Source: a bacterium (GTDB lineage: Bacteria; SAR324; XYD2-FULL-50-16). Taken from it: DNA of 64,000 nucleotides. Positions 37,504 through 49,948 of this stretch are shown piece after piece. Made by a program: the position numbers and the translations under genes. The stretch is taken from the NCBI GenBank assembly GCA_032250835.1, contig JAVVEA010000012.1, forward strand, positions 32,001 to 96,000, written 5' to 3'. The notes beneath the pieces were generated by a model. It ran no database searches. It was not told the DNA's origin and saw only the letters and a program-made list of their open reading frames with translations. Positions within the stretch are counted from its first letter, which is position 1, and each line of letters begins with the position of its first letter.

Positions 37504-39324
37504 ATGTGCGGAATCAGCGCAATCGCTAGCCACCGACCGGTGGCAGCCGGACTGCTCCAATGCCTAAAGAATTTGGAGTACCGCGGGTACGACTCCTGCG
37601 GCATGGCACTGCAAAGCGACCAAGGGATCGAACTACGCAAAAACGTAGGCAACGTGGCCGCAGTGGACGAAGCCGAACACTTTGTTGAAATGCCCGGCCA
37701 CCTCGGCATCGCCCACACTAGGTGGGCGACCCACGGCGGAGTCACCAAAGAAAACTCCCATCCCCATGCCTCTAATGACGGCCAGTTTGTGGTGGTCCAC
37801 AACGGGATCTTCTCAAACTACCAGACGCTGCGCGAAGAACTGCGTGCCAAAGGCTATACCTTCTTTTCCGATACGGACACCGAAGTCCTGGCCAACCTGT
37901 TAGAAGAAGCTTATAAGACCCACCCGGAGGTGGAAGCGGCCTTTATTGCCGCAGTGCACCAGCTCGAAGGCTCTTACGCGGTGGCCATCCTCTCAGAGCA
38001 CCAACGCGGAACCCTTTTCGGCGCCAAAAAGGATTCTCCTTTAGTGCTGGGTTTAGGGGACGGTGAAATCTTTCTAACTTCGGACATCAACGCCTACATC
38101 AGCGAGACCCGCGACACGGTGCTGCTCAACGATATGGAGTATGTAGTCGTCACCAAGGACACCTGGCAGGTCAAATCACTGCTCGACGGCAAAAAGCTGA
38201 CCAAAGAGGTGATCCAAGTCCAGTGGGACCGCGAAACGGCCCAGATGGGCGGTTATTCCCATTACATGCTCAAGGAAATCTTCGACCAACCCCAAACCAT
38301 TAAAAATGCGTTGGCCGTTGACCAAAGCCAGATCGAGCAAATTGCCCGTCAGTTTGTGGCGAAGGGGCAGAACTTCCTTTGTGGAGTGGGTACCACCTAT
38401 TACGTGGCCATGGTGGGGGCCTATCTTTTTAAGCGGTACGCCCAACTTTACGTCCCGGCGATCAGCTCCGACGAATTCCCCACCCTGCTGCCTTTGAGCG
38501 CCGACCAACACAGCCTGTTTTTGAGTCAGTCTGGGGAAACCTACGATACCCGGATGGCCATCCGCGCTGCCCAAGAAGCTGGTGGAGCGACTAGCGCCAT
38601 CGTCAACGTAGTGGGCAGTTCCATCAGCCAAATGGTGGACCAATGTATTTTTCAGGGTTCTGGCCCGGAAATCTGCGTCGTCAGTACCAAAGCGGCTTTA
38701 AGCCAAATGATCCTACTTTGGCGGATCGCGCTGCGCACCGGTGTGCACCGTGGAACGCTATCTTTGGCCGAAGAAAAGCGCATCTTGGGGCATTTGCAAG
38801 AATTTGGCGAAATGCTGACCGATACACTCAACGAGGAATCTGGCTTCATCCGCCAATTGGCCAAGCAGACCAGCCATATCCACAACTGGCTGTTTATGGG
38901 TAAGGATATTTATTACCCTATGGCGCTGGAATCGGCCTTAAAAATGAAAGAAGTCACCTACCTTCATGCCGAAGGGCTCCCGGCTGGGTTTTTGAAGCAC
39001 GGCACGCTGGCCATGGTGGACCCCAGCCTCTTCAGCCTATTCTTCCTGCCCACCCAGGGTGAAGGGGACCTTTACCGCTCGACCTTAGCCGCCATCGAAG
39101 AAGTCCGCGCCCGTGACGGCGTGGTGATCAGCTTCGCTACCGAAGGCAACCACCAAGCCCGCGAGCTGATGAACCACTGCATCCAGGTGCCCGACCTCCC
39201 GGCCGAAACCATGCCGCTGATGCAATTGGTGTTGGCCCAGCTCTTTTCTTATTATTCAGCGCTGCACTTGGGACTGAATATCGATAAACCCCGCAATTTG
39301 GCCAAATCGGTCACCGTGGGCTAG
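37504..39324 (+). CDS. glmS: Glutamine-fructose-6-phosphate transaminase (isomerizing)
   Basis: MCGI, LEYRGYDS, HTRWATHG, HNG, SQSGET, STKA, PRNLAKSVTV. Confidence 0.92.
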   Translation: MCGISAIASHRPVAAGLLQCLKNLEYRGYDSCGMALQSDQGIELRKNVGNVAAVDEAEHFVEMPGHLGIAHTRWATHGGVTKENSHPHASNDGQFVVVHNGIFSNYQTLREELRAKGYTFFSDTDTEVLANLLEEAYKTHPEVEAAFIAAVHQLEGSYAVAILSEHQRGTLFGAKKDSPLVLGLGDGEIFLTSDINAYISETRDTVLLNDMEYVVVTKDTWQVKSLLDGKKLTKEVIQVQWDRETAQMGGYSHYMLKEIFDQPQTIKNALAVDQSQIEQIARQFVAKGQNFLCGVGTTYYVAMVGAYLFKRYAQLYVPAISSDEFPTLLPLSADQHSLFLSQSGETYDTRMAIRAAQEAGGATSAIVNVVGSSISQMVDQCIFQGSGPEICVVSTKAALSQMILLWRIALRTGVHRGTLSLAEEKRILGHLQEFGEMLTDTLNEESGFIRQLAKQTSHIHNWLFMGKDIYYPMALESALKMKEVTYLHAEGLPAGFLKHGTLAMVDPSLFSLFFLPTQGEGDLYRSTLAAIEEVRARDGVVISFATEGNHQARELMNHCIQVPDLPAETMPLMQLVLAQLFSYYSALHLGLNIDKPRNLAKSVTVG

Positions 39325-40016
39325 TGGACGTCGAGCGCTTCCCGCTGCAGCTGTTTGATCTCGACGACACCCTCCTGCATACCCGCGCTAGCTATTATGC
39401 AGCCCAAGAGTATGCCGTAGACGAACTGTGGGACCGTTTGCTGCTTCCCCAGCGCGAGCGCGCTTACCAAGAGATCCATTGGTTTTCCAAGCGGATTGGT
39501 TCGGTGGACCCACCAGCCTACATGAGCGCCTTCTTGCAAAGCTGGGGTATCCTCAACGACGCCAACTTACGCCTGCTGCTTGAATGTTACCGTGAATCTT
39601 ATTGGAGCGACATCAAGCTTTATGAAGGCGCTCTAGAATTTTTAGAGAAGCTCCAGACCCAGGGACGCCAGTTGGGGTTGGTCAGCAATGGCACCAGCAG
39701 CACCCAACACAAAAAGGTGATGCATACCGGGCTAGGCCGGTTTTTCCCCGCTGCGGCAAGGTTCATCTCCGGCGATTTCGAGCCGAGACACAAAAAACCC
39801 TCACCCTACATGATTTTGCGGGCTTTGGAGTACTTCGGCAGAGAGCCGAGTGAAACAATATATTATGGGAATACCCAGGATGACGTCCTGGCGGCAAACT
39901 TGGCCGGAGTGACCAGTTTGTTATTTGGTCCTGAAGAAACAGAAGAAACCGCACCGCAAGCGGCCAAACCGGTCTTGCGGCGCGGATCTTGGTTGGGGAT
40001 CGTAAAACCAGCCTGA
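39324..40016 (+). CDS. HAD-family hydrolase
   Basis: FDLDDTL, VSNG, KKPSP, GN...DVLAA. Confidence 0.85.
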   Translation: MDVERFPLQLFDLDDTLLHTRASYYAAQEYAVDELWDRLLLPQRERAYQEIHWFSKRIGSVDPPAYMSAFLQSWGILNDANLRLLLECYRESYWSDIKLYEGALEFLEKLQTQGRQLGLVSNGTSSTQHKKVMHTGLGRFFPAAARFISGDFEPRHKKPSPYMILRALEYFGREPSETIYYGNTQDDVLAANLAGVTSLLFGPEETEETAPQAAKPVLRRGSWLGIVKPA

Positions 40017-40051
40017 AGCACAGGGGGCGAACCCCTGCACCTCAATCGGCC

Positions 40052-41509
40052 TTACCTATCCATCAACAAAGAGAACACCTTCGAGGGTGAGCTATTCGCC
40101 TGCGACATCATTGCCGCAGCCGACTGCTTCATCAACTCGTTACGGGTATAATTGGCCATCTCCAAAGCGATGTCCGTATCCCGAATGGTTGATTCCGCAG
40201 CCACCATGTTCTCCTGGGTGGTCCGCAACGTCGCGATGTTGGTCGCCAGAGTATTCTTCTGGAACGAACCCAACCTTGAGCGCGTCTGGGACACGTCGTT
40301 AATGGCGGTGTCAATGATCTTCAGAGCGTCCTGTGCCCCTTGAGCCGTCCGGACATCGATGTCCGCAAGACTTTCAAAGGCACTTGAGTTCGCAATACCC
40401 CGGCCAACTTGGTTGGCCGACATGTTCTGAAGCGCAATCTCGACCGTTTGGCCCGCGTCCGGTCCGACCTGGAAGGTTAAGGCGTTTTGAGCCACCGTAA
40501 CCTTACCCACGTTCGTTCCTTCGGCCAGCGGCTGCACCCCTTCGGGCCGCCGGTACCGCACCGTCAAGTTGTCGGTCGAGGGGTTACCGACCAAACCGGT
40601 CATGGTATCCCCTTTTCCGAGCGTTGCCTCACCATTAATGGTTCCCATTAGGTCCGTACCCGAATTGGCGCTGCTTAGGCTACCGGCTTCTTGTGACAAG
40701 ACACCAGCGGTCGAAGAAGACACCTGGAAGGTGTACTGAGACCCATGTTGCTTATGAGCGATCCGGATCACACCCGAGTCATCACTCGTCACGTCTACCG
40801 CGAGACCCGACTTACGGGACACCTCGGCGAAGTTCTTGATCGCACTAGCCACCGTGTCCGTAGACTTGGTGGTGTAGGTGGCGGATTTACCGCCCTCTAC
40901 CAGCGTCAAGGTTTCCCCCGCTTCGACCATCTCTTTAGTCAGGGCCGTACTGCCCGACCAAGAGGCCGCGGAAGACTCTTGGGTAATGACTACGTCATAC
41001 CCGTCTTTCCCAGAAGACATGGCTTTGGTACCGGCTTCGACGAAGGACAAGCCCGCGCCGATTGAGGTACCCGAAACACCGTTTGAACCGTCCAGCAGCT
41101 TCTTAGAGCCGAATGACGTGGTTTGAGCGATCCGGTCAATGGCCGAAATCCCTCCGCTGATTTCCGTTTGGTCGGCCTCCAGCATAACCATATCGTTCGC
41201 GCCCTCGTTGGCCGCGTGGATGGACAATTGGCGCATGCCCACCAAAAGGTTGTTCACCTCTGTTAAAGCACCTTCAGCAGTTTGAACCATAGAAACCGAG
41301 GCTTCGGAGTTCTTCACAGCTTGCTCGATACTCGCGATTTGCGAGCGCATCTGTTCAGAAGCTACCAAAGACGCGGGAGCATCCCCTGCTCGGTTGATAC
41401 TCAAGCCCGACGAAAGTTTTTCAAGGGACTTTGAGACCCTATCCGAAGCTTGTGTCAGGTTCCTATGCGCGTTCAGACTGCTGGTATTATGGTTAATTCG
41501 CAAACTCAT
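40052..41509 (-). CDS. Flagellin, downstream paralog (here called fla2)
   Basis: MSLRINHN, LEKLSSGLSINRAGD, QTAEGALTE, FQVG, RSRLGSFQ, ESTIRDTD; SD AGGAGG. Confidence 0.95.
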   Translation of the reverse strand: MSLRINHNTSSLNAHRNLTQASDRVSKSLEKLSSGLSINRAGDAPASLVASEQMRSQIASIEQAVKNSEASVSMVQTAEGALTEVNNLLVGMRQLSIHAANEGANDMVMLEADQTEISGGISAIDRIAQTTSFGSKKLLDGSNGVSGTSIGAGLSFVEAGTKAMSSGKDGYDVVITQESSAASWSGSTALTKEMVEAGETLTLVEGGKSATYTTKSTDTVASAIKNFAEVSRKSGLAVDVTSDDSGVIRIAHKQHGSQYTFQVSSSTAGVLSQEAGSLSSANSGTDLMGTINGEATLGKGDTMTGLVGNPSTDNLTVRYRRPEGVQPLAEGTNVGKVTVAQNALTFQVGPDAGQTVEIALQNMSANQVGRGIANSSAFESLADIDVRTAQGAQDALKIIDTAINDVSQTRSRLGSFQKNTLATNIATLRTTQENMVAAESTIRDTDIALEMANYTRNELMKQSAAAMMSQANSSPSKVFSLLMDR

Positions 41510-41824
41510 ATTACCTCCTAATAGAGCGTATGCGGCTTGAGAGTATCATCGACCTCCGATGTCAATAAAACTCGAACCTTACCCTTTCGGGCAGGAAACG
41601 CTTGGGACCTGTAGGTCGCACAACCTGCGGGTACCAAAGCGGCTCCCCTGAACCACATTCCCCTTCCTAGTTTGGGGCTCAAGGCAACCGCTTTGCCGCG
41701 GTCACCCATACCTCGCCTGGAAAGGTGCTCTTAGACGATAAGTCTGCGATCCTGCCAATGATCGCAACCGATCCCCAATGGCCGGGGGGAGCAGCCCCCG
41801 GCTACGTTCATGCCGCTGTTAAGA

Positions 41825-43282
41825 TCAACCCAACAACTTCATGATCGAATTGGGCATATTGTTGGCGTGGCTGAGCATCGCCGTAGCCGACTCGACCATG
41901 ATCTGGTTTCTGGTGAAAGAAGCCATTTCCATAGCCATGTCGGTGTCGCGAATGGTCGACTCAGCCGCTACGAGATTCTCCGAAGCAATCCGCAGGTTCG
42001 ATAGATTGCTTTCCAGGGTGTTTTTCTGGAAGGCACCCAACTCACCACGGATGGACGTGATGTCGTTGATCGCTTGATCGATCAACCGCAACGAGTCCTG
42101 AGCCCCGTCGAAATTCCGTACGTCGATGTCCCGCAAGCTAGCAAAACCTGAATCGTTCTCAACCCCTTTGCCCAATGACTTAGAAGAGGTGTCAAACAAC
42201 GATACACTAGCGGTTTGGCCCTGGTTGCCCCCGATTTGGAAGGTCAACGAGTTGTTCGAAACCGCTACGGAGCCAATTTTAACGCCCCCTTCGGGGATGT
42301 CGCCATCGGTGCCGGCCCTACCCCAAAAGCCTACTTTTAGGCCTTCGACGTTTGCCGTACCACTGGAACCGGTAAGGACTTGTCCCTTACCCGAAGTGGT
42401 TTCTCCGTTGATCGATCCTTCAATGTCCTGACCATTGTCGATGGTCTGGACCGCCCCGCCTTCGTCCGAAAGCAGGCCAGAGGAAGTCGATGAGACTTGA
42501 AACTGTTGGCCGGAGCCATATTGTTTGTGGGTCACCACCAACTGGTTTTGTTCGTTTAGCGAAACTTCAACATCCAACCCTGAGTCTTTGACGGCGCTAG
42601 AAAGCCGTTGTACGGCCGTCTTCACGTTGTCGCTGCTCTCAGCTTTGAACCTTGCGATCTTCCCGCCCTCAATGATGGTAAACTCCTCGCCTGCGGCGAT
42701 GGCTTCTTCCGTTAGGGCTTGCTTGCCGACCACTTGGCTGCGGGTGGCGTTTTTGGTGACCACTACGTCGTAACCGTCGGCGTCTGAAGCTTGAGTCTTG
42801 ACGCTAGCGCCAAGAAATTCAACTCCATTACCGATGGCCACGCCGGTGGCACCATTACTTCCATCAAGCAACTTCCGTTTGCCGAACTGCGTCTGGGCAG
42901 CGATCCGATCTAAAGATTGAAGCGCGTTGGAAATCTCGAGTTGGTCCGCTTGCAGCATGACCTCGTCGTTCATCCCCTCGTTGGAAGCGTGAATAGACAA
43001 CTGCCGCATGGATACCAAGAGGCGGTTGACTTCGTTCAGCGCACCTTCGGTGGTCTGAATGACGCTGATAGCGTTCTCGTTGTTCGTTACGGCCTGGTTG
43101 ACCGAAGCGACCTGAGCACGCATCTGCTCGGAAATCACCAATTGCGCCGGGCCGTCACTGGCCCGGTTGATCTTCAATCCGCTGGAAAGCTTTTCCAGGG
43201 AGCCCCGAAGAGCCGTCTCGTTAGCGAGCAGGTTCCGGTGGGCGTTTAAGGCACTCTTGTTATGATTGATACGAACACTCAT
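41825..43282 (-). CDS. Flagellin, upstream paralog (here called fla1)
   Basis: MSVRINHN, LEKLSSGLKINRASD, QTTEGALNE, FQIG, RGELGAFQ, ESTIRDTDMA. Confidence 0.95.
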   Translation of the reverse strand: MSVRINHNKSALNAHRNLLANETALRGSLEKLSSGLKINRASDGPAQLVISEQMRAQVASVNQAVTNNENAISVIQTTEGALNEVNRLLVSMRQLSIHASNEGMNDEVMLQADQLEISNALQSLDRIAAQTQFGKRKLLDGSNGATGVAIGNGVEFLGASVKTQASDADGYDVVVTKNATRSQVVGKQALTEEAIAAGEEFTIIEGGKIARFKAESSDNVKTAVQRLSSAVKDSGLDVEVSLNEQNQLVVTHKQYGSGQQFQVSSTSSGLLSDEGGAVQTIDNGQDIEGSINGETTSGKGQVLTGSSGTANVEGLKVGFWGRAGTDGDIPEGGVKIGSVAVSNNSLTFQIGGNQGQTASVSLFDTSSKSLGKGVENDSGFASLRDIDVRNFDGAQDSLRLIDQAINDITSIRGELGAFQKNTLESNLSNLRIASENLVAAESTIRDTDMAMEMASFTRNQIMVESATAMLSHANNMPNSIMKLLG

Positions 43283-43287
43283 AACAT

Positions 43288-43421
43288 TCTCCTTGTGAGA
43301 TGGTTTAGCCCGAAATCCTTATCGGGCCGGTAAGCCAAGTCATGGCTACTTCGCAAAGCTCGGATCGGCAAAAAAGTTCGGTCGCCAACTCCTTTTGGCG
43401 GACAACCAAATCCTTTTGGTT
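43288..43421 (-). promoter_or_regulatory. Array of CsrA-type AGGA-in-loop hairpins in the fla1 leader
   Basis: Hairpins at 43308-43327, 43383-43400 and 43404-43421 each display AGGA in the loop on the minus strand; SD is CAAGGAG. Confidence 0.7.
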
Positions 43422-43618
43422 TCTCCAAGCGAAGCACCCTACGAAGTCCCCCTAGAGGGGCCTCCCAGGGCAGCTCCCATATCCAACCCAAGCCTAACTT
43501 CTCGGGATATGGCAACTGCCGGGCGTGGTTCACCTTGCGCACCTCACGCATTATCCATAGGCAATCTCCAATTCAGGTTTAAAATAACCCTCCGTTGGCC
43601 ACAGAGGGAGTTAGTTCC

Positions 43619-43646
43619 TTAACGGCTAAAGGCCGCTAAAACTTAA
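43619..43646 (-). promoter_or_regulatory. Sigma28 (FliA) promoter for fla1
   Basis: Minus strand TAAG-N15-GCCGTTAA versus consensus TAAA-N15-GCCGATAA. Confidence 0.75.
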
Positions 43647-43774
43647 ATACTCTTCGCCGCAAACAGGCCTTGGGCTTAGATTTAACCCCGTCCAGCCTAG
43701 TTGTAGCCCGATCAAAAAAACACAAAAAGGAGCTTCGAGCCAGGTCTTAGACCCGGACCCTTGGCCCCTGTGTT

Positions 43775-43966
43775 TCATGAGGCCGCATCCAAGGGCCCGC
43801 TTTCGTATTCGTCGATTTCGATAAACAACGGCGGATCTTCAGGCGCGTAAACCAGTTTCAATCCTGGCTGGATGCGCGTTAAGCTACGTTCGTCGAAGCA
43901 GATGTTGATCACCCGTTTCGCATAATTGGAGCTGTAGCGCTCCTTAGCAACTCGTTTGGCTTTCAT
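43775..43966 (-). CDS. Small hypothetical protein, 63 aa
   Basis: ATG preceded by AAAGGAGAAAAGGACC; fills the gap between fliS and the fla1 promoter in the operon orientation. Confidence 0.5.
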   Translation of the reverse strand: MKAKRVAKERYSSNYAKRVINICFDERSLTRIQPGLKLVYAPEDPPLFIEIDEYESGPLDAAS

Positions 43967-43987
43967 GGTCCTTTTCTCCTTTGATCA

Positions 43988-44003
43988 TGGCACAGCTTTC
44001 GCA
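43988..44003 (+). promoter_or_regulatory. Sigma54 (RpoN) -24/-12 promoter on the + strand with no downstream ORF
   Basis: TGGCAC-AGCTT-TCGCA, exact GG-N10-GC spacing. Confidence 0.6.
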
Positions 44004-44013
44004 TCTCCATAAT

Positions 44014-44150
44014 CGTCATGGTTAATTCGCAAACTCATATGCCGGATCCCCAAGGACCCCAAAAATTCGCGGTGCCGCACACGCCGCAGGGGAATCCAGA
44101 AGGATCCCGGATATGGGCAGAGTGATCCGACCAGACTCCTAATCAAAATC
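44014..44150 (+). ncRNA. Candidate trans-antisense sRNA against the fla2 translation start; ends approximate
   Basis: 44018-44040 is identical to 41489-41511 (23 of 23 nt); 44136-44143 is identical to 41515-41522; imperfect hairpin 44036-44115; sigma54 motif just upstream. Confidence 0.5.
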
Positions 44151-44255
44151 CCCTTGCCTTAAAATTTTGCCAAAAGTCCCCCGGGCCGCTTATCGTTTTT
44201 CGATGCCGCCTAGTTCTTTACCTATGGGGGCCAGTGCCTGGGCACCGGATGGGTC

Positions 44256-44693
44256 TTAACCTTCTACATTAACCGGCTTGACGGTACCGCGCATCTGCAC
44301 ATAATTGCTTTTGGTTTTGCGCTGTTCGATCACCGCACGCCAACCTTCGCGCAACTCGGTTAACAGAACCAAACACTCGTCGGTCAAGACCGGACTTTTT
44401 TGGATGTTCGCATCGATCAGCCGGTTGTAGATGTAGGTGTACAGCTTCTGAAGGTTAACACCGATCTCTCCGGTGCCTTCGGTATTCAAAGACCCCAACA
44501 ACTCGGCCACAATGTCCTTGGTCTTCACCAACGAGGTGTGGGCTCCTTCCAAGTCGTTTTCTTCGAGTTTGATCAAAGCTTTCTTTAAAAAGCGCACCGC
44601 GCCGTCGTACAACATCAAGATCAGGGTCGCCTGATCCTGGGTGTTTACGGCGGCCTTTTTGTAGGCCTGGCTGCCTTTGGCATAGGGGTTCAT
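44256..44693 (-). CDS. fliS: Flagellar export chaperone FliS
   Basis: AYKKAAVNT...LILMLYDGA, NLQKLYTY, LTELREGW. Confidence 0.95.
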   Translation of the reverse strand: MNPYAKGSQAYKKAAVNTQDQATLILMLYDGAVRFLKKALIKLEENDLEGAHTSLVKTKDIVAELLGSLNTEGTGEIGVNLQKLYTYIYNRLIDANIQKSPVLTDECLVLLTELREGWRAVIEQRKTKSNYVQMRGTVKPVNVEG

Positions 44694-44710
44694 GTTTCCT
44701 CCGAATTAAT

Positions 44711-47700
44711 CTACAGTTTTGCCAGTTCCTTACTCATGTAGCTTTGTTCAGCTTTTAGCTGGCCCATCTTCGAGTCAAGGCGGGCAAACTTTTCCACCAA
44801 CTTTTCGCGTTTGGCGGTCACGCGCTCTTCGAGGGTTTTCACCTCCGCTTCGTAGCCCTTGAGCTGTTCTTCAACGTTCTTGGTGTAAATCCCCAGGGCC
44901 CCGGTTTCGGCGTCCATTAGTCCGGTGATATACTCCATCACGCGGGTGCCCACCCCTTTAGTGAACACCATATTCGCTTCGGGCCCTTCGGCTAGTTGGG
45001 TGTCGGCCAGCGAGACAAATAGCTTCAACCCTTCAAAATCAGTCCCTTCGGGCCCGGATAAGATCTGACCCGAGCCGTCCATCTCGATGCCGTTGATGCT
45101 GCCCTGAACATTTTTACCCGCCGCCCCTTCGCCGCCCATCAAGAAATGCGGTTTGAGGTTGTCCACTTCCTTGGGCCGGACCTCGATGGCGCTTCTCGAA
45201 CCGGTCAGGTTCGAGCGGATCGTGATTTTGCCTTGGTCCTGAGTCACGGCTATGTTCATGCGCTTAAGCGCTTTATCTTCCAAAATCTTTTTCTGTAATT
45301 CCTTAGCCAGCATCTCGACGCTGTCATAGGTCTTCTTTTCTAACTCGATCGGTTCGGACTCGCGTCCGTTGACCTTTAAAAAGATCACGTTATTGGTGTC
45401 GTCGACCACCACGGGCTGCGTAAAGGTTTGGGTGCTATAATACCCTTTGCTCGCCGCTTGGGTGATGTCGATGGCAAAGCCGTCTGCACCGCTCAACTTG
45501 GTTTTCTCGGTAGACGAGAGATAACTGATCGCGCTGTTCTCGCTGGTGCCATTGCTGCGGAACAGGTTGGCTACCTTAGAGAGGTCGTCATTGACCGCTT
45601 GGTTCAGTTTGTCTTCGTCTACAATAATGGTCCCTTCACCACCAATTTTGAGGCCAATGGCCATCAGCAAGTTGGCGTCTTCGGGCAACCCGCTCACCGG
45701 GTTGATGAAGATCCGCGACATCTCTTGTTGGATCCGCGGAAGGTTCCGGTCGCCCTGCAACGGGGCCGCCTCATCCTTATCCTTGTCGTACTTGATCACC
45801 TCTCTAAAGAAGGTGAGCATTTCGTTGTACGAATCCACAAATTCTTTGACGCCGGCGATGGCCTTTTCGGTATCGCCTTTGATGCTGATGGTCACCGGCT
45901 TTTCGGAGGTGGCCAAAAGGTTCAACTTGACCCCATCAATCACGTCGTCCAGTTCGTTGGTGGCGCTGGTGATCAGCAAACCGCCGCCCAATTCGGTCGC
46001 CCCTAGCCGAACCTCAGCATCTTGGGGCGGTTGGATGACCGGGCTGAAGGTGCGGAAGGTGAAGCTATCGGTTTCAAAGATACTCCCTTCGCCCAACTGC
46101 AAGCTCAAGCCCGAGTCGAAGGCTAGGGCCGCTCCGGCTTGGTAGTGGTCGCCACCTACCTTCAAAACGCCCGAATTGCCTTCATTGTCTTCCCATTTCA
46201 TCTCCAAGCCCTTGGTGGTCCCGATGGTACCGGAGCCCAGGGCGGTGAAGGTATAGACCTTGGATTCATAGCCCTCAAAGTTACCTACGATCTGCTTTTC
46301 TACGTTGCTGACCCTAGGTCCTTTCGGAGCCGTCGAAGCCTTTGCGCCACCACCAAAACCGGTCGAGGCGGCATCGTCTTCTACCTCAGGGCCGATCCAA
46401 CTGCTCAAATTTTTAATCTGCCCACCTTCTACCTGATCCGACTCGGGCAACCACCAATAGTTGGCCGTCGATTCAGACTGGCATTCGAAGGTAGCATAAC
46501 TGCCTTCGTTTAGCAGACCGGGCTTCAACTCGATCTCTAGGCCTCGGCCCAAGCTCATTTTGGTGCCCGGTTGGTAACCGTCCCCGACGAAGATAGTGCC
46601 GGAGAAACCATTTTCACTGGTCACCTCAATCTTTAAATCACCTTGGCCGATCTGACCGGAGCCCACCACCTTCATGGTGAAGCGGTCGTCTTCTGCTCCG
46701 TCATATTGGCCGGTGACGATCGGTCCACCTTCGGTGGCCTGCTTGCCCCAACTGGCCGGTTGTTGGATCGCCGGGGCCCGCTCTTCATCAGACTTCCACC
46801 AATAGATTTCCGGTTCCTGTGGCTTAGCCTTGGCTTCGAAGCTGTCGTTAACGATCACTTCCCCATCGGTCATCACCAACTGGATCCCGTCGACTACCTC
46901 CACCGGCTCTCCGGGGGTGTAGTTAAAACTGCCCAAGTCCAGGTAGCCATGGCGTCCCTGGTTGTCTTCCCAGCGCACCCTTAAGGTTTCGCTAACCCCG
47001 ACCGCGCCGGTGTTGACCACCGTAAACTTCAGGTCTAAGGGTTCGGTGCCCGTATAGGTCCCGATCAATTCCGGGATCGCCGTCGAAGCGCCGGTTCCGG
47101 TCGCCTTGGAATCTGCTTTGTCTCCTGCCGCAGCAATCCCTTTCCACTTGCTGGGCTGGTTGTAATAGGGGTCGAAGGTCGGCGAGGGGATTCCCTCTTC
47201 GCCTTGCAGTTCGACCTGGGTAAAGATTTCCCCATCTTTGCCCGTCATCTTGCTGGTCAACACGATCTGATAGGGCGCTTCTTTGTTGCCCGTCTTGATG
47301 ATGTTGGCCTCTACCTCAGCGTCCAGCGCGTTGATCGCGTCGGCAAAGCCTTGCACTGTATTGTTGGTGTCATCGACCACAAAACTTTCGGAGGCATTTT
47401 CGCCCACCGTTAACGTAACCTTTCCTTTACCAATCTGGGCGTCCTTTTCGGCAAAGCCCTGGCTGGCAATCTGGTGGTTTAAGGCCAGCTTATCGACCAC
47501 CAAGGTATGTTTGCCCGGCTTCGCTCCACTGGTGGCGCTGGCGGCGACGATCTCGGGGTCCGAGCTATCGACCAGCTTGCCTTCCCACATGGACTTCTTC
47601 GAGAGCACCTCGGACTTATCCTTTACCTGCTCAATCAAAGCCTTGACCTGCTTCCAGGCCTCCAACTCGACGGTCTTCTCAGTGGCCCGGCCCTGGATCG

Positions 47701-47806
47701 GCTCGATCTTCTTTTTTTCGACCTCAACCAATTTTTCGATGATGTTCTTGACGTCCAAACCGGAGCCAAGCCCTTGCATCATATTGGGTGAAATTTCACC
47801 AGCCAT
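44711..47806 (-). CDS. fliD: Flagellar filament cap FliD, unusually long (about 1030 aa)
   Basis: GLGSGLDVKNIIEKLVEVEK N-terminus; QDA...TNELDDVIDGV, FVDSYN, PLQGD; C-terminal KFARLDS; ATG at 47806 preferred. Confidence 0.92.
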   Translation of the reverse strand: MAGEISPNMMQGLGSGLDVKNIIEKLVEVEKKKIEPIQGRATEKTVELEAWKQVKALIEQVKDKSEVLSKKSMWEGKLVDSSDPEIVAASATSGAKPGKHTLVVDKLALNHQIASQGFAEKDAQIGKGKVTLTVGENASESFVVDDTNNTVQGFADAINALDAEVEANIIKTGNKEAPYQIVLTSKMTGKDGEIFTQVELQGEEGIPSPTFDPYYNQPSKWKGIAAAGDKADSKATGTGASTAIPELIGTYTGTEPLDLKFTVVNTGAVGVSETLRVRWEDNQGRHGYLDLGSFNYTPGEPVEVVDGIQLVMTDGEVIVNDSFEAKAKPQEPEIYWWKSDEERAPAIQQPASWGKQATEGGPIVTGQYDGAEDDRFTMKVVGSGQIGQGDLKIEVTSENGFSGTIFVGDGYQPGTKMSLGRGLEIELKPGLLNEGSYATFECQSESTANYWWLPESDQVEGGQIKNLSSWIGPEVEDDAASTGFGGGAKASTAPKGPRVSNVEKQIVGNFEGYESKVYTFTALGSGTIGTTKGLEMKWEDNEGNSGVLKVGGDHYQAGAALAFDSGLSLQLGEGSIFETDSFTFRTFSPVIQPPQDAEVRLGATELGGGLLITSATNELDDVIDGVKLNLLATSEKPVTISIKGDTEKAIAGVKEFVDSYNEMLTFFREVIKYDKDKDEAAPLQGDRNLPRIQQEMSRIFINPVSGLPEDANLLMAIGLKIGGEGTIIVDEDKLNQAVNDDLSKVANLFRSNGTSENSAISYLSSTEKTKLSGADGFAIDITQAASKGYYSTQTFTQPVVVDDTNNVIFLKVNGRESEPIELEKKTYDSVEMLAKELQKKILEDKALKRMNIAVTQDQGKITIRSNLTGSRSAIEVRPKEVDNLKPHFLMGGEGAAGKNVQGSINGIEMDGSGQILSGPEGTDFEGLKLFVSLADTQLAEGPEANMVFTKGVGTRVMEYITGLMDAETGALGIYTKNVEEQLKGYEAEVKTLEERVTAKREKLVEKFARLDSKMGQLKAEQSYMSKELAKL

Positions 47807-48034
47807 ATTGAAACCTATCCTTGAGAAGGTCGGAACCGGCAAATAGTTCCGCAGTCTTTAACTAGAGACTCCGCTCGACCCAACGGATTAAACTCCGTCG
47901 TAGGGACCTCCTTTTATTGCTACCCGCCGTAATCAAAGGCGGACAGGTTCAGGAGCGGACCTGCCTTGCCATCGGGCAAGAGGTCCCTGAGGTTGATTGG
48001 GCCATCAAAGGCCCTAGAATCCCAAGGATAGGTT

Positions 48035-48051
48035 TACAATTCTTGTTCCAA
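48035..48051 (-). promoter_or_regulatory. Sigma54-like promoter upstream of fliD
   Basis: Minus strand TTGGAAC-AAGAA-TTGTA; correct spacing with GT instead of GC at -12. Confidence 0.45.
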
Positions 48052-48059
48052 CTTGCCTT

Positions 48060-48385
48060 TACACTCCTTCTTTCTTTTTCGCCCGCCTGCTTAAGCTCCG
48101 GCGTTGGGGCCTAAGAGGATCAAGGCGATTACCGTTTAGGGGTGGCCGCGAGGGCCACTGGCTCCTCTGGTGAGCCCGATCATACGGGCCAGACCACTCG
48201 CCTCAGGCGAAATGCTGGCCACCCCATTAAGTTCCCCCTTTTAAAGGGGCTAAAGATTTGGCCTCCTACAGGCTGATAGGCGCACACCCCAGCCTGCAGG
48301 AGCCGACCCGAGGGGGTCGGTGTCATGGTGCTTTCGCACCCAATCTAACGGGCGGAACCTAGCCCTTTGGCTTAAGTCCTTGCCT
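48060..48385 (-). ncRNA. Large structured non-coding RNA or leader domain
   Basis: Dense nested stems, GAAA tetraloop and G-U pair on the minus strand; starts just downstream of a sigma28 promoter; no minus-strand ORF of 60 aa or more. Confidence 0.45.
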
Positions 48386-48387
48386 CC

Positions 48388-48414
48388 TTATCGGCGGCTC
48401 CTTTTAGAACTTGA
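48388..48414 (-). promoter_or_regulatory. Sigma28 promoter (proximal) upstream of fliD
   Basis: Minus strand TCAA-N15-GCCGATAA, perfect -10 element. Confidence 0.8.
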
Positions 48415-48543
48415 GCCTTTTTTCTTAATTTTCACTCGAACCCGCTGGGGCCTGCGTCCTAAGATGATCCCTAAGATCCATAACATCTCATCCTCCGTTG
48501 GGAGTTCTTTTTCGATTTGGCGCCAAGGATTGCGCTTGCTTCC

Positions 48544-48570
48544 CTATCGGTTGCTCTGAGCTTTAACTTA
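48544..48570 (-). promoter_or_regulatory. Sigma28 promoter (distal) upstream of fliD
   Basis: Minus strand TAAG-N15-ACCGATAG with AT-rich upstream sequence. Confidence 0.6.
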
Positions 48571-48697
48571 ACTATATTTTTTATTTTTTAGTTACAGTTA
48601 GTTGGATTTGATTATTGAGCTTGGGCTTGCCAGAATGAAGCGGTTTTGATTTATATATGACTAACTTGATCAGTTTACTCATCTATAAAAGGGCGGT

Positions 48698-49948
48698 ATG
48701 GAACTTTGGTTGACTCTGCTGGCGGTGGCTCTGGTGATCGGTCTGTTTTTGGTGACCTCCTGGCGGCCAGACCTGATTTTGGGTTGCGCCATTGGCCTGT
48801 TGGTGCTGACCGGCACCTTGACGCCCGCTGAGGCCCTGAAGGGGTTTTCTAATCAGGCCGTGCTGACCATTGCCCTTTTGTATCTGGTGGTCGGTGGGTT
48901 GCAGCATAGCGGTGGCATGCTCTGGCTCTCGCGCCACCTGTTAGGCAGTCCGGCGAGTGAATGGCGGGGCCGGTTGCGGATGATCACCCCGGTGATCGGC
49001 CTGAGCGCCTTCATGAACAACACCCCGGTGGTGGCCTTGATGATCCCGGCGGTACAAAACTGGTGTAAGCGGTTGCAGTGGGACCCAGCTAGGTTTTTAT
49101 TGCCCCTCAGTTATGCCTCTATCTTAGGGGGAATCTGCAGCCTGATCGGAACCAGCACCAACCTGGTGGTTGCTGGGCTGGCGTTAGAGGAAGGTTTGAC
49201 CGAAATCGGCCTGTTTGACGTCACCCCGGTGGGCCTGCCCTGCGCGGCGGTCGGACTGGTCTTCTTGATTTTTTTGGGGCCCCGGTTGCTGCCGAAGCGG
49301 AACCTAACGCCGGAGCTACGCCCCATTTCTTGGCCCCAGGACCCCAAAGAACCGAATTTAAATTACCGGGGTGCCCTCGCCCTAGGTTTGTTGGCGGCGA
49401 TGGTATTGCTGGCCGCTACAGGGCTTTTGGGGATGTTTTATGCCGCTTTGGGCACCGCGTTGGCGATGCTGGTCCTGCGGTTTTTGAACTTCAAGGCAGC
49501 GGCCCGGTCGGTAGATTGGTCTGTTTTAATCGCTATCGCCCTCTCCTTTGGCCTAAGCGAAGCGATCAAAAAACATGGCTTAGACCGGATGGTGGCCCAA
49601 GGGCTGATGGACAGTGTGGGGCAGGACCCCTTCTGGGTGTTGGTGGTCTTTTTCTTGGCCACCTCCTTGTTGACTGAGTTGGTCACCAACAATGCCACCG
49701 CCGTGCTGATGTTCCCCATCGCCCTTTCGGCAGCGGCGCAATTGGGCGTTAGCCCCCTGCCCTTTATCTTTGCCGTGATGATCGCCGCCTCATCCAGCTT
49801 TTCTTCCCCCATGGGCTACCAAACCAACCTAATGGTCTACGGCCCCGGCGGCTACCGATTCTCCGACTATTTGCGGCTGGGGGTTCCGATGAATTTACTG
49901 ATCGGGGCCACGGCGTTGTGCCTCTTGCCCTGGCTCTATCCCTTCTAA
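48698..49948 (+). CDS. SLC13/CitMHS family permease lacking TrkA-C domains
   Basis: SAFMNNTPVV, LIGTSTNL, TELVTNNA, SPMGYQTNLMVYGPGGYRFSD. Confidence 0.88.
   Translation: MELWLTLLAVALVIGLFLVTSWRPDLILGCAIGLLVLTGTLTPAEALKGFSNQAVLTIALLYLVVGGLQHSGGMLWLSRHLLGSPASEWRGRLRMITPVIGLSAFMNNTPVVALMIPAVQNWCKRLQWDPARFLLPLSYASILGGICSLIGTSTNLVVAGLALEEGLTEIGLFDVTPVGLPCAAVGLVFLIFLGPRLLPKRNLTPELRPISWPQDPKEPNLNYRGALALGLLAAMVLLAATGLLGMFYAALGTALAMLVLRFLNFKAAARSVDWSVLIAIALSFGLSEAIKKHGLDRMVAQGLMDSVGQDPFWVLVVFFLATSLLTELVTNNATAVLMFPIALSAAAQLGVSPLPFIFAVMIAASSSFSSPMGYQTNLMVYGPGGYRFSDYLRLGVPMNLLIGATALCLLPWLYPF

Follow-up and report, generated by a model that had tools for sequence, protein, structure and literature searches.

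Why should a spacer among flagellar genes carry an exact copy of the start of a flagellin gene, on the strand opposite to the flagellar genes themselves? The question was raised by a DNA stretch of 64,000 nt (the window, to which all positions refer unless a contig is named) from a bacterium of the SAR324 lineage. On its minus strand lie, in this order, fliD (44711-47842), the flagellin chaperone gene fliS (44256-44693; Pfam FliS, E = 9.2e-36), a spacer of ~290 nt, a conserved 63-aa ORF (43775-43966) and the flagellin genes fla1 (41825-43282) and fla2 (40052-41509; Flagellin_N/C domains), each encoding 485 aa. The candidate element is located within the spacer, upstream of the flagellin genes and in the 5' region of the 63-aa ORF, on the strand opposite to all of these; fliS lies downstream of the predicted plus-strand RNA and is antisense to it. 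No Rfam family was found in 39000-49000 at E values up to 1.

A copy of the flagellin start on the opposite strand

The 23-mer at 44018-44040 is a second, exact copy of 41489-41511, ~2.5 kb away, and the identity from which the original prediction of an antisense small RNA (sRNA) had started was confirmed at 23 of 23 positions. Read on the minus strand it consists of AT, the ATG and six further codons (MSLRINH) of fla2; it is the exact complement of fla2 from -2 to +21. The 23-mer has only two occurrences in the window when up to three mismatches are allowed, and two occurrences were obtained in none of 100 shuffles. At fla1 the counterpart (43262-43284) is identical at 17 of 23 positions (74%), so that this paralogue does differ as had been claimed, albeit at six positions where about five had been counted. 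We refer to 44015-44040 of the plus strand, the part antisense to the flagellin start and 5'-terminal in the predicted RNA, as the seed; it is conserved in 14 family genomes.

A predicted sigma-54 promoter in front of the seed

Ahead of the seed, TGGCACAGCTTTCGCA at 43988-44003 on the plus strand (TGGCAC-AGCTT-TCGCA, with GG at -24 and GC at -12) agrees with 10 of the 12 defined positions of the sigma-54 consensus and has the GG-N10-GC spacing, in keeping with the motif originally reported there, and it is the best sigma-54-like site among the four flagellar intergenic regions scanned. The transcription start is predicted, from geometry only, at 44012-44016 on the plus strand, ~12 nt past the C of the -12 element, and in 12 of 12 genomes a start placed 12 nt past this C would precede the seed by 0-4 nt. 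The genome encodes rpoN (Sigma54_DBD match at C6:79917-80393, 207 bits, in an open frame of 582 aa), and a genome scan found comparable intergenic -24/-12 motifs before other ORFs, two of which we take, from their N-termini, to be NifH and FlgB; the organism should therefore be able to use such a promoter. The genome also contains fliA. In loose scans, the region upstream of fla1 yielded neither a sigma-28 nor a sigma-54 site, and that upstream of fla2 yielded no sigma-28 site and only three weak sigma-54-like sites, each matching 8 of the 12 defined positions. Sigma-70 or sigma-28 promoters serving the 63-aa ORF from inside the element were also considered and were rejected, as no consistent match could be seen by eye in the alignments.

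Conservation of promoter and seed as one module

Relatives were compared by using the 63-aa ORF as an anchor, which is independent of the element, in 19 genomes of the SAR324/Lambdaproteobacteria-type family. The ORF was found in 15 of the 19, and both boxes, the sigma-54 motif and the seed, were present in 12 of the 13 readable regions upstream of it; the exception, G001, has the ORF and lacks the element. A sequence-only model of the module (R1), for which 12 of the copies served as training sequences, was then run over all 88 genomes of the phylum. It found the full-length module in 14 of the 19 family genomes, those beyond the training set being G005 and G010, together with a copy in G014 cut by the contig end; the 69 other genomes of the phylum gave partial matches only and no full-length copy. 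Ten of the model's matches (two full-length and eight partial) were inspected by eye, and G005 and G010 proved to be true copies.

The remaining eight were rejected as copies of the element. Those in G020, G068, G070 and at a second locus of G012 are ordinary flagellin gene starts, and those in G027, in G069 and at two loci of G011 are without a correctly spaced -24/-12 motif. At the two G011 loci (L067 and L068), repeat copies end in a mini-ORF starting MSLRIVHN or MSLQIIHN, which is preceded by a conserved hairpin, CCCACTTTCGCGGGAATG. The G027 stretch (L063), from another family of the class, reads TTGCGAATCAACCATGAGAAC ... ATGCAGATGCCAATGC and resembles both boxes; it has no start codon and no correctly spaced GG/GC, and could be either a diverged relative of the element or a chance likeness.

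Across 11 genera the module keeps a fixed geometry of motif, gap of ~10-14 nt and anti-flagellin block, and the conservation of the seed, which the original prediction had left to be examined, thus turned out to be conservation of motif and seed together. In an alignment of 12 genomes (A2, plus strand), GGCA and T.GCAT are invariant and the spacer between them varies in sequence and never in length; the block (C)ATGnTTnATTCGCAAAnTCAT is the antisense of the flagellin start. The GG-N10-GC stretch is free of indels in all 14 family copies, G005 and G010 included, and indels occur just outside it. Judged by the motif, the invariant columns of the module are the positions that sigma-54 would read. 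Wider searches with a strict two-box pattern returned nine matches in a collection of about 185,000 species genomes, every one in a genome of the family, and 21 in metagenome contigs, in 17 of which a flagellin start follows 565-1245 nt downstream; the other four show no flagellin start within the sequence available.

Little else in the spacer can be aligned. Among the three closest genera (alignment A3; G000, which is this genome, G003 and G007), only the promoter, the seed and one further short block, CAAAATCCCCTT..TTAAAA at 44144-44164, are alignable. This block may represent either the 3' portion of the RNA or a signal read from the opposite strand. A related sequence, AAGGGGATYGGTCYGC, is seen on the other strand in G012, G013 and G006. 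In G013 (L015) and G006 (L014), long tandem arrays of a ~70-nt repeat fill the spacer after fliS, and the end of the G006 contig inside its array probably explains why element and small ORF are missing there.

An intact third flagellin at this place in relatives, which the original prediction had named as the mark of a duplication remnant, was not found: no flagellin gene lies between fliS and the 63-aa ORF in any of the 13 readable relatives. Since, in addition, the resemblance of the spacer copy to flagellin stops after codon 7, we rejected a flagellin pseudogene or duplication remnant as its identity. The unalignable flanks, together with the absence of a flagellin there in any relative, argue that the element is under selection and is no recent duplication scar. 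In order-level relatives fliS, the small ORF and flagellin are packed without spacer and without the element, a layout which suggests that the element was inserted in the ancestor of the family. The comparative support for a predicted sigma-54 promoter that would make an RNA with a 5' anti-flagellin seed is strong.

Predicted pairing with flagellin mRNAs

Pairing in this genome was calculated for the first 32 nt of the predicted RNA, with 200 shuffled seeds as a control. The predicted primary target is the initiation region of fla2 (41487-41515, minus strand), where the spacer after the Shine-Dalgarno (SD) sequence and the stretch from the AUG to codon 7 form a duplex of -38.8 kcal/mol, against a mean of -17.0 and a best value of -25.4 kcal/mol for shuffled seeds. 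The fla1 leader offers a possible second target, 57-75 nt ahead of the AUG (43339-43357, minus strand; -30.4 kcal/mol), where 17 of 19 positions match the complement of the seed; in G003 and G007 only a GCCAUG core of this site is kept, inside a conserved small hairpin. The start of a third flagellin, on another contig, gives -25.0 kcal/mol, the other three flagellins of the genome pair at background level, and nowhere else in the genome are there 12 or more contiguous complementary bases. The original prediction of an RNA specific for one paralogue is therefore upheld in so far as fla2 pairs best, but the fla1 leader and the third flagellin speak against exclusivity.

The same calculation was extended to the family by taking all flagellin starts that match a degenerate pattern (3 to 9 per genome, in 14 genomes), a pattern which misses unusual starts. 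In each of the 14 module-bearing genomes the best duplex with a flagellin of its own lies between -25.5 and -38.8 kcal/mol, and none of the shuffled 5' ends (50 per genome) reached the observed energy in any of them. The duplexes usually reach 5-13 nt upstream of the AUG. In 23 of 26 distinct copies the predicted openness of the seed also exceeds that of the remaining RNA (0.58 versus 0.41).

The original prediction had further asked whether the seed tracks the flagellin of its own genome. Individual cases fit: the G002 seed has TTA, as has the second G002 flagellin (21 of 21 positions identical), and the seeds of G010 and G013 carry a GTG variant that matches their own MSV-type local flagellin. 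Overall, however, the signal is weak, with a mean of -33.3 kcal/mol for own-genome pairing versus -31.4 kcal/mol for other genomes, a difference equalled by 2.9% of random assignments among genomes that are themselves related; for pairing with the seed, the rank of the own genome among these 14 related genomes varies between 1st and 12th. The flagellin start is too conserved in the family for a strong test. The sequence identity, the conserved promoter motif with its geometry and the pairing energies are directly established.

Other conserved elements upstream of the flagellin genes

Three further elements were observed in the flagellin leaders and upstream regions. At 41635-41700 (minus strand) a conserved AAGCGGTTGCC ... 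GTGGTTCAGGGGAGCCGCTTT, a hairpin followed by U, stands ~130-195 nt upstream of fla2-type starts; it is kept in at least five genera, occurs also at L026, L027, L028, L035, L167 and L168, and matched no Rfam family. A single metatranscriptome contig, covering 41514-41701, ends at the edge of this element, which could be a 5' stabiliser, an attenuator or the terminator of the upstream gene. The fla2-type leaders (~41553-41567, minus strand, and relatives) contain, ~55 nt ahead of the AUG, a small hairpin whose loop includes GGA, in addition to a GGAGG SD sequence; a GGA in a hairpin loop combined with a GGAGG SD sequence is the two-site layout of CsrA-controlled flagellin leaders. Finally, a sequence-conserved hairpin, GGCAGTTGCCATATCC ... 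GGATATGGGAGCTGCC, is located at 43469-43520, ~190-240 nt upstream of fla1, in G000, G003 and G007, and is adjoined by a conserved block, GGAGATTGCCTATGGA; two metatranscriptome contigs end beside it, at 43450-43468.

Structure and extent of the predicted RNA

The original prediction described a bipartite RNA in which a second, distal segment would cover the SD region of fla2. The octamer CTCCTAAT is indeed located at 44136-44143 (plus strand) and is the same as 41515-41522, the anti-SD sequence of fla2, but this half of the design did not hold up in relatives: a match over 8 nt is close to what chance would give, and the octamer is absent in the two closest genera (G003 and G007). Given this lack of conservation it is probably a chance or genome-specific feature. 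In several relatives an anti-SD-like CUCC directly follows the seed instead.

An imperfect hairpin beside the seed, likewise part of the original description, is present at ~44034-44117, directly after the seed, in the minimum-energy folds of both strands. Its energy is no better than that of shuffled sequences (z -1.46 on the plus strand and -0.66 on the minus strand), and a hairpin occurs at this position in all lineages while its sequence is not conserved. The minus-strand preference that had been noted persists as a slight lean: the hairpin is more stable on the minus strand in 14 copies and on the plus strand in 11, with one tie, but the mean difference of 2.0 kcal/mol favours neither strand (Wilcoxon p = 0.13). 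In genus-g10-type copies the U tract of the hairpin lies mostly on the fliS strand, where the two together look like a fliS terminator. An origin of the hairpin from a repeat or mobile element was rejected, as whole-genome BLAST of the spacer gave matches of at most 20 nt besides fla2, and a 12-mer of the hairpin occurs just once in the genome.

As to the 3' end of the RNA, a hairpin followed by a U tract was not found on the plus strand of this genome before +183/+201, and the only site that a scan for consensus terminators returned on this strand, 44380-44393, lies inside fliS, such sites being no more numerous than in shuffled sequences. Among relatives, a clear hairpin and U tract on the RNA strand stands at +71 to +101 in G003, G008, G009 and G002, and weaker ones are seen in G004, G007, G012 and G013; in G016 the sole one is at +166, and none is present in G015 or G018. 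Contigs from three metatranscriptome runs (5-7% of sampled words) cover parts of fla1, fla2 and their upstream regions, a coverage that excludes 43738-44538.

A working model

We favour the reading that the element is the gene of a stand-alone, sigma-54-dependent, trans-acting sRNA that represses flagellin translation, to which, on the comparative data, we assign a probability of about 0.6. The promoter at 43988-44003 would give rise to a plus-strand RNA starting near 44014, the first ~25 nt of which would be the exact antisense of the flagellin start from the AUG to codon 7, and in several relatives the seed would cover the SD region as well. Such an RNA would pair in trans with mRNAs of flagellins of the MSLRINH type, in this genome chiefly with that of fla2, probably with the leader site of fla1 and more weakly with that of the third flagellin. 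By occluding the ribosome-binding region, the pairing would prevent the translation of flagellin while the sigma-54-dependent flagellar genes are on. Promoter activity, the two ends of the RNA, a repressing rather than activating effect of the pairing and the logic of its timing are inferences in this scheme.

Alternative readings of the element

Of the other explanations, the one that survives best, unlikely as we consider it, places the selected feature on the strand of the flagellar genes. The element would there be a mimic or decoy of the flagellin start in the mRNA leader of the 63-aa ORF, to which any factor that reads flagellin starts would bind, or a regulatory structure for this small ORF, and the sigma-54-like box would be a second RNA or protein site whose likeness to a promoter is only superficial. 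The element always stands 11-35 nt upstream of the small ORF, an SD-like GGAG precedes the mimic AUG in several genomes, and the adjoining hairpin is marginally more stable on the flagellar strand, where, in the genus-g10-type copies, U runs come after it. The genome also encodes CsrA and FliW (genes adjacent at C11:278348-279069), which in other bacteria are reported to act on flagellin leaders (PMC4894983). Yet the second box fits the sigma-54 -24/-12 elements base for base and with exact spacing in all copies, and its distance from the mimic fits the geometry of promoter and transcription start; CsrA sites, moreover, are GGA motifs, and these lie outside the conserved part. The order-level relatives, which keep fliS, the small ORF and flagellin without the element, indicate that the small ORF does not need it.

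The small ORF itself belongs to a family of 69 homologues, all hypothetical or nameless. An alignment of 46 sequences (A4) has C23, F24, G35, L36, K37, P46 and F48 invariant, and the AlphaFold model is a confidently predicted beta-alpha-beta fold (pLDDT 81.4), for which no structural match was found (best Foldseek E = 2.0; VIA Z at most 2.4). Searches of Pfam and NCBIfam gave no match, and in the Atlas there was nothing above 0.78. Because it directly follows fliS in order-level relatives with reduced genomes, the ORF probably encodes a flagellar accessory protein.

Somewhat less probable again is a translated mini-ORF (MSLRINH...[N/D]A[K/R]x[V/M]P) that bears the flagellin N-terminus and would serve as a leader peptide, linking expression of the 63-aa ORF to the status of translation or export. 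The sense face of the element does contain such a frame, MSLRINHDDYGDAKAVP followed by a stop codon (43985-44038, minus strand); in 11 of 14 genomes it stays open, with no change of frame, to the end of the second box, it begins with ATG in 11 of 14, and the indel between the boxes is one of 3 nt. These 11 open-frame genomes, however, amount to only about five lineages. In the other three of the 14, the frame stops after 8-9 codons, before the second box, which is nevertheless kept in another frame, and three of the 14 have ATA or GTG as the start codon (ATA in two). In alignment A2, furthermore, third codon positions of the frame are among the invariant nucleotides (the T of the N/D/Y codon and the G of the V/M codon) and first positions vary, the reverse of a coding pattern. 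The third-position invariance, the early stops and the ATA and GTG starts point to a constraint on the nucleotides and not on a peptide, and the mini-ORF is probably not the selected feature.

We give slightly less weight still to a cis-acting antisense RNA directed against the fliD-fliS-small ORF transcript, through transcriptional interference or duplex-directed cleavage, with the flagellin likeness an inherited by-product. Any plus-strand RNA from 44014 is by its position antisense to the spacer between fliS and the small ORF, and without an early terminator in this genome it may enter fliS. A by-product would decay, however, whereas across 11 genera no part of the spacer is better conserved than the 21-nt flagellin-like stretch, and the rest is unalignable. 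Least probable is a functionless relic of a partial flagellin duplication beside a chance sigma-54-like motif, or a leaderless plus-strand gene for a micro-peptide from the ATG at 44018: in shape the element resembles a flagellin 5' end, and it has an ATG 0-4 nt past the predicted start, but the module is conserved across genera between unalignable flanks, no relative has a flagellin gene there, and past the seed the plus-strand frames agree neither in length nor in sequence (hand translation of G000, G003, G004, G007, G009 and G012).

Comparison with known regulators and significance

The closest parallel to the trans-acting sRNA that we favour is FlaX, an RpoN/FlrA-C-dependent sRNA of Vibrio cholerae and Vibrio parahaemolyticus (PMC11879080; bioRxiv 10.64898/2026.08.28.747715), which keeps ribosomes from binding the mRNA of a secondary flagellin and represses its translation (PMC11879080), thereby reinforcing the flagellar gene hierarchy and setting filament composition (PMC11879080; bioRxiv 10.64898/2026.08.28.747715). 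FlaX is processed from a flagellin 3' UTR, binds ProQ and has three pairing sites in the 5' UTR (PMC11879080; bioRxiv 10.64898/2026.08.28.747715). FlaX has in common with the predicted RNA that a sigma-54-class RNA represses flagellin via the ribosome-binding region. The element described here differs in having its own predicted promoter and an antisense position in the spacer between fliS and the small ORF instead of a flagellin 3' UTR, in pairing by a 5'-terminal copy of the first seven codons where FlaX pairs at three 5' UTR sites, and in belonging to another phylum. The original prediction had not recognised the architecture; it does differ from that of FlaX, but the concept has a precedent in FlaX as a sigma-54-class repressor of flagellin (PMC11879080).

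Other flagellar sRNAs are more distant. In Campylobacter jejuni, CJnc230 and CJnc170 are integrated into the circuits of RpoN- and FliA-class flagellar genes and adjust flagellin output, in a host which has CsrA-FliW and reportedly is without Hfq (PMC11187230). Hfq was likewise not found in the present genome, which is 97% complete. Neither Campylobacter sRNA has a sequence relation to the element, and CJnc230 is reportedly co-transcribed with a hook gene and said to act on flgM and a transcription factor gene, not on a flagellin start codon. In Escherichia coli, sigma-28-dependent, UTR-derived sRNAs made within the flagellar regulon act by base-pairing and feed back on flagellar expression (PMC10578931). 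Being of the sigma-28 class, UTR-derived and reportedly Hfq-dependent, they differ from the element also in targets and architecture. Qrr is a stand-alone sRNA gene with a -24/-12 promoter in the quorum sensing regulon. GlmY and GlmZ, too, are stand-alone sigma-54-dependent sRNA genes (PMC3045617). These share with the element the arrangement of an independent sRNA gene behind a -24/-12 promoter; their regulons, quorum sensing and cell-envelope sugar, have no relation to flagellin. In the open-access literature searched, on flagella and small RNA in SAR324/Lambdaproteobacteria and on RpoN-dependent sRNAs and flagellin mRNA, the element is not described.

With regard to its origin, we tentatively propose, as a doubtful but possible reading, an RNA gene born from its own target. 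The SD sequence and first seven codons of a flagellin gene would have been duplicated into the spacer in the ancestor of the family and captured in reverse behind a sigma-54 promoter; the product would now be an Hfq-independent checkpoint RNA that works alongside CsrA-FliW and prevents flagellin translation for as long as the genes of hook and basal body are on. For such a reading, the packed gene order of the order-level relatives, lacking the element, would represent the state before insertion.

The sRNAs shown to date to keep flagellar assembly in order come from a few cultured Proteobacteria and from Campylobacter. If the present reading is true, an uncultured phylum would have evolved its own sigma-54-class RNA that restrains flagellin, independently and with a simpler architecture, one legible straight from the sequence, and the pair of promoter and 21-23-nt seed would be testable in a heterologous host without culturing. 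It would also be one of the rare cases in which the seed of a bacterial sRNA can still be traced to a piece of its own target gene.
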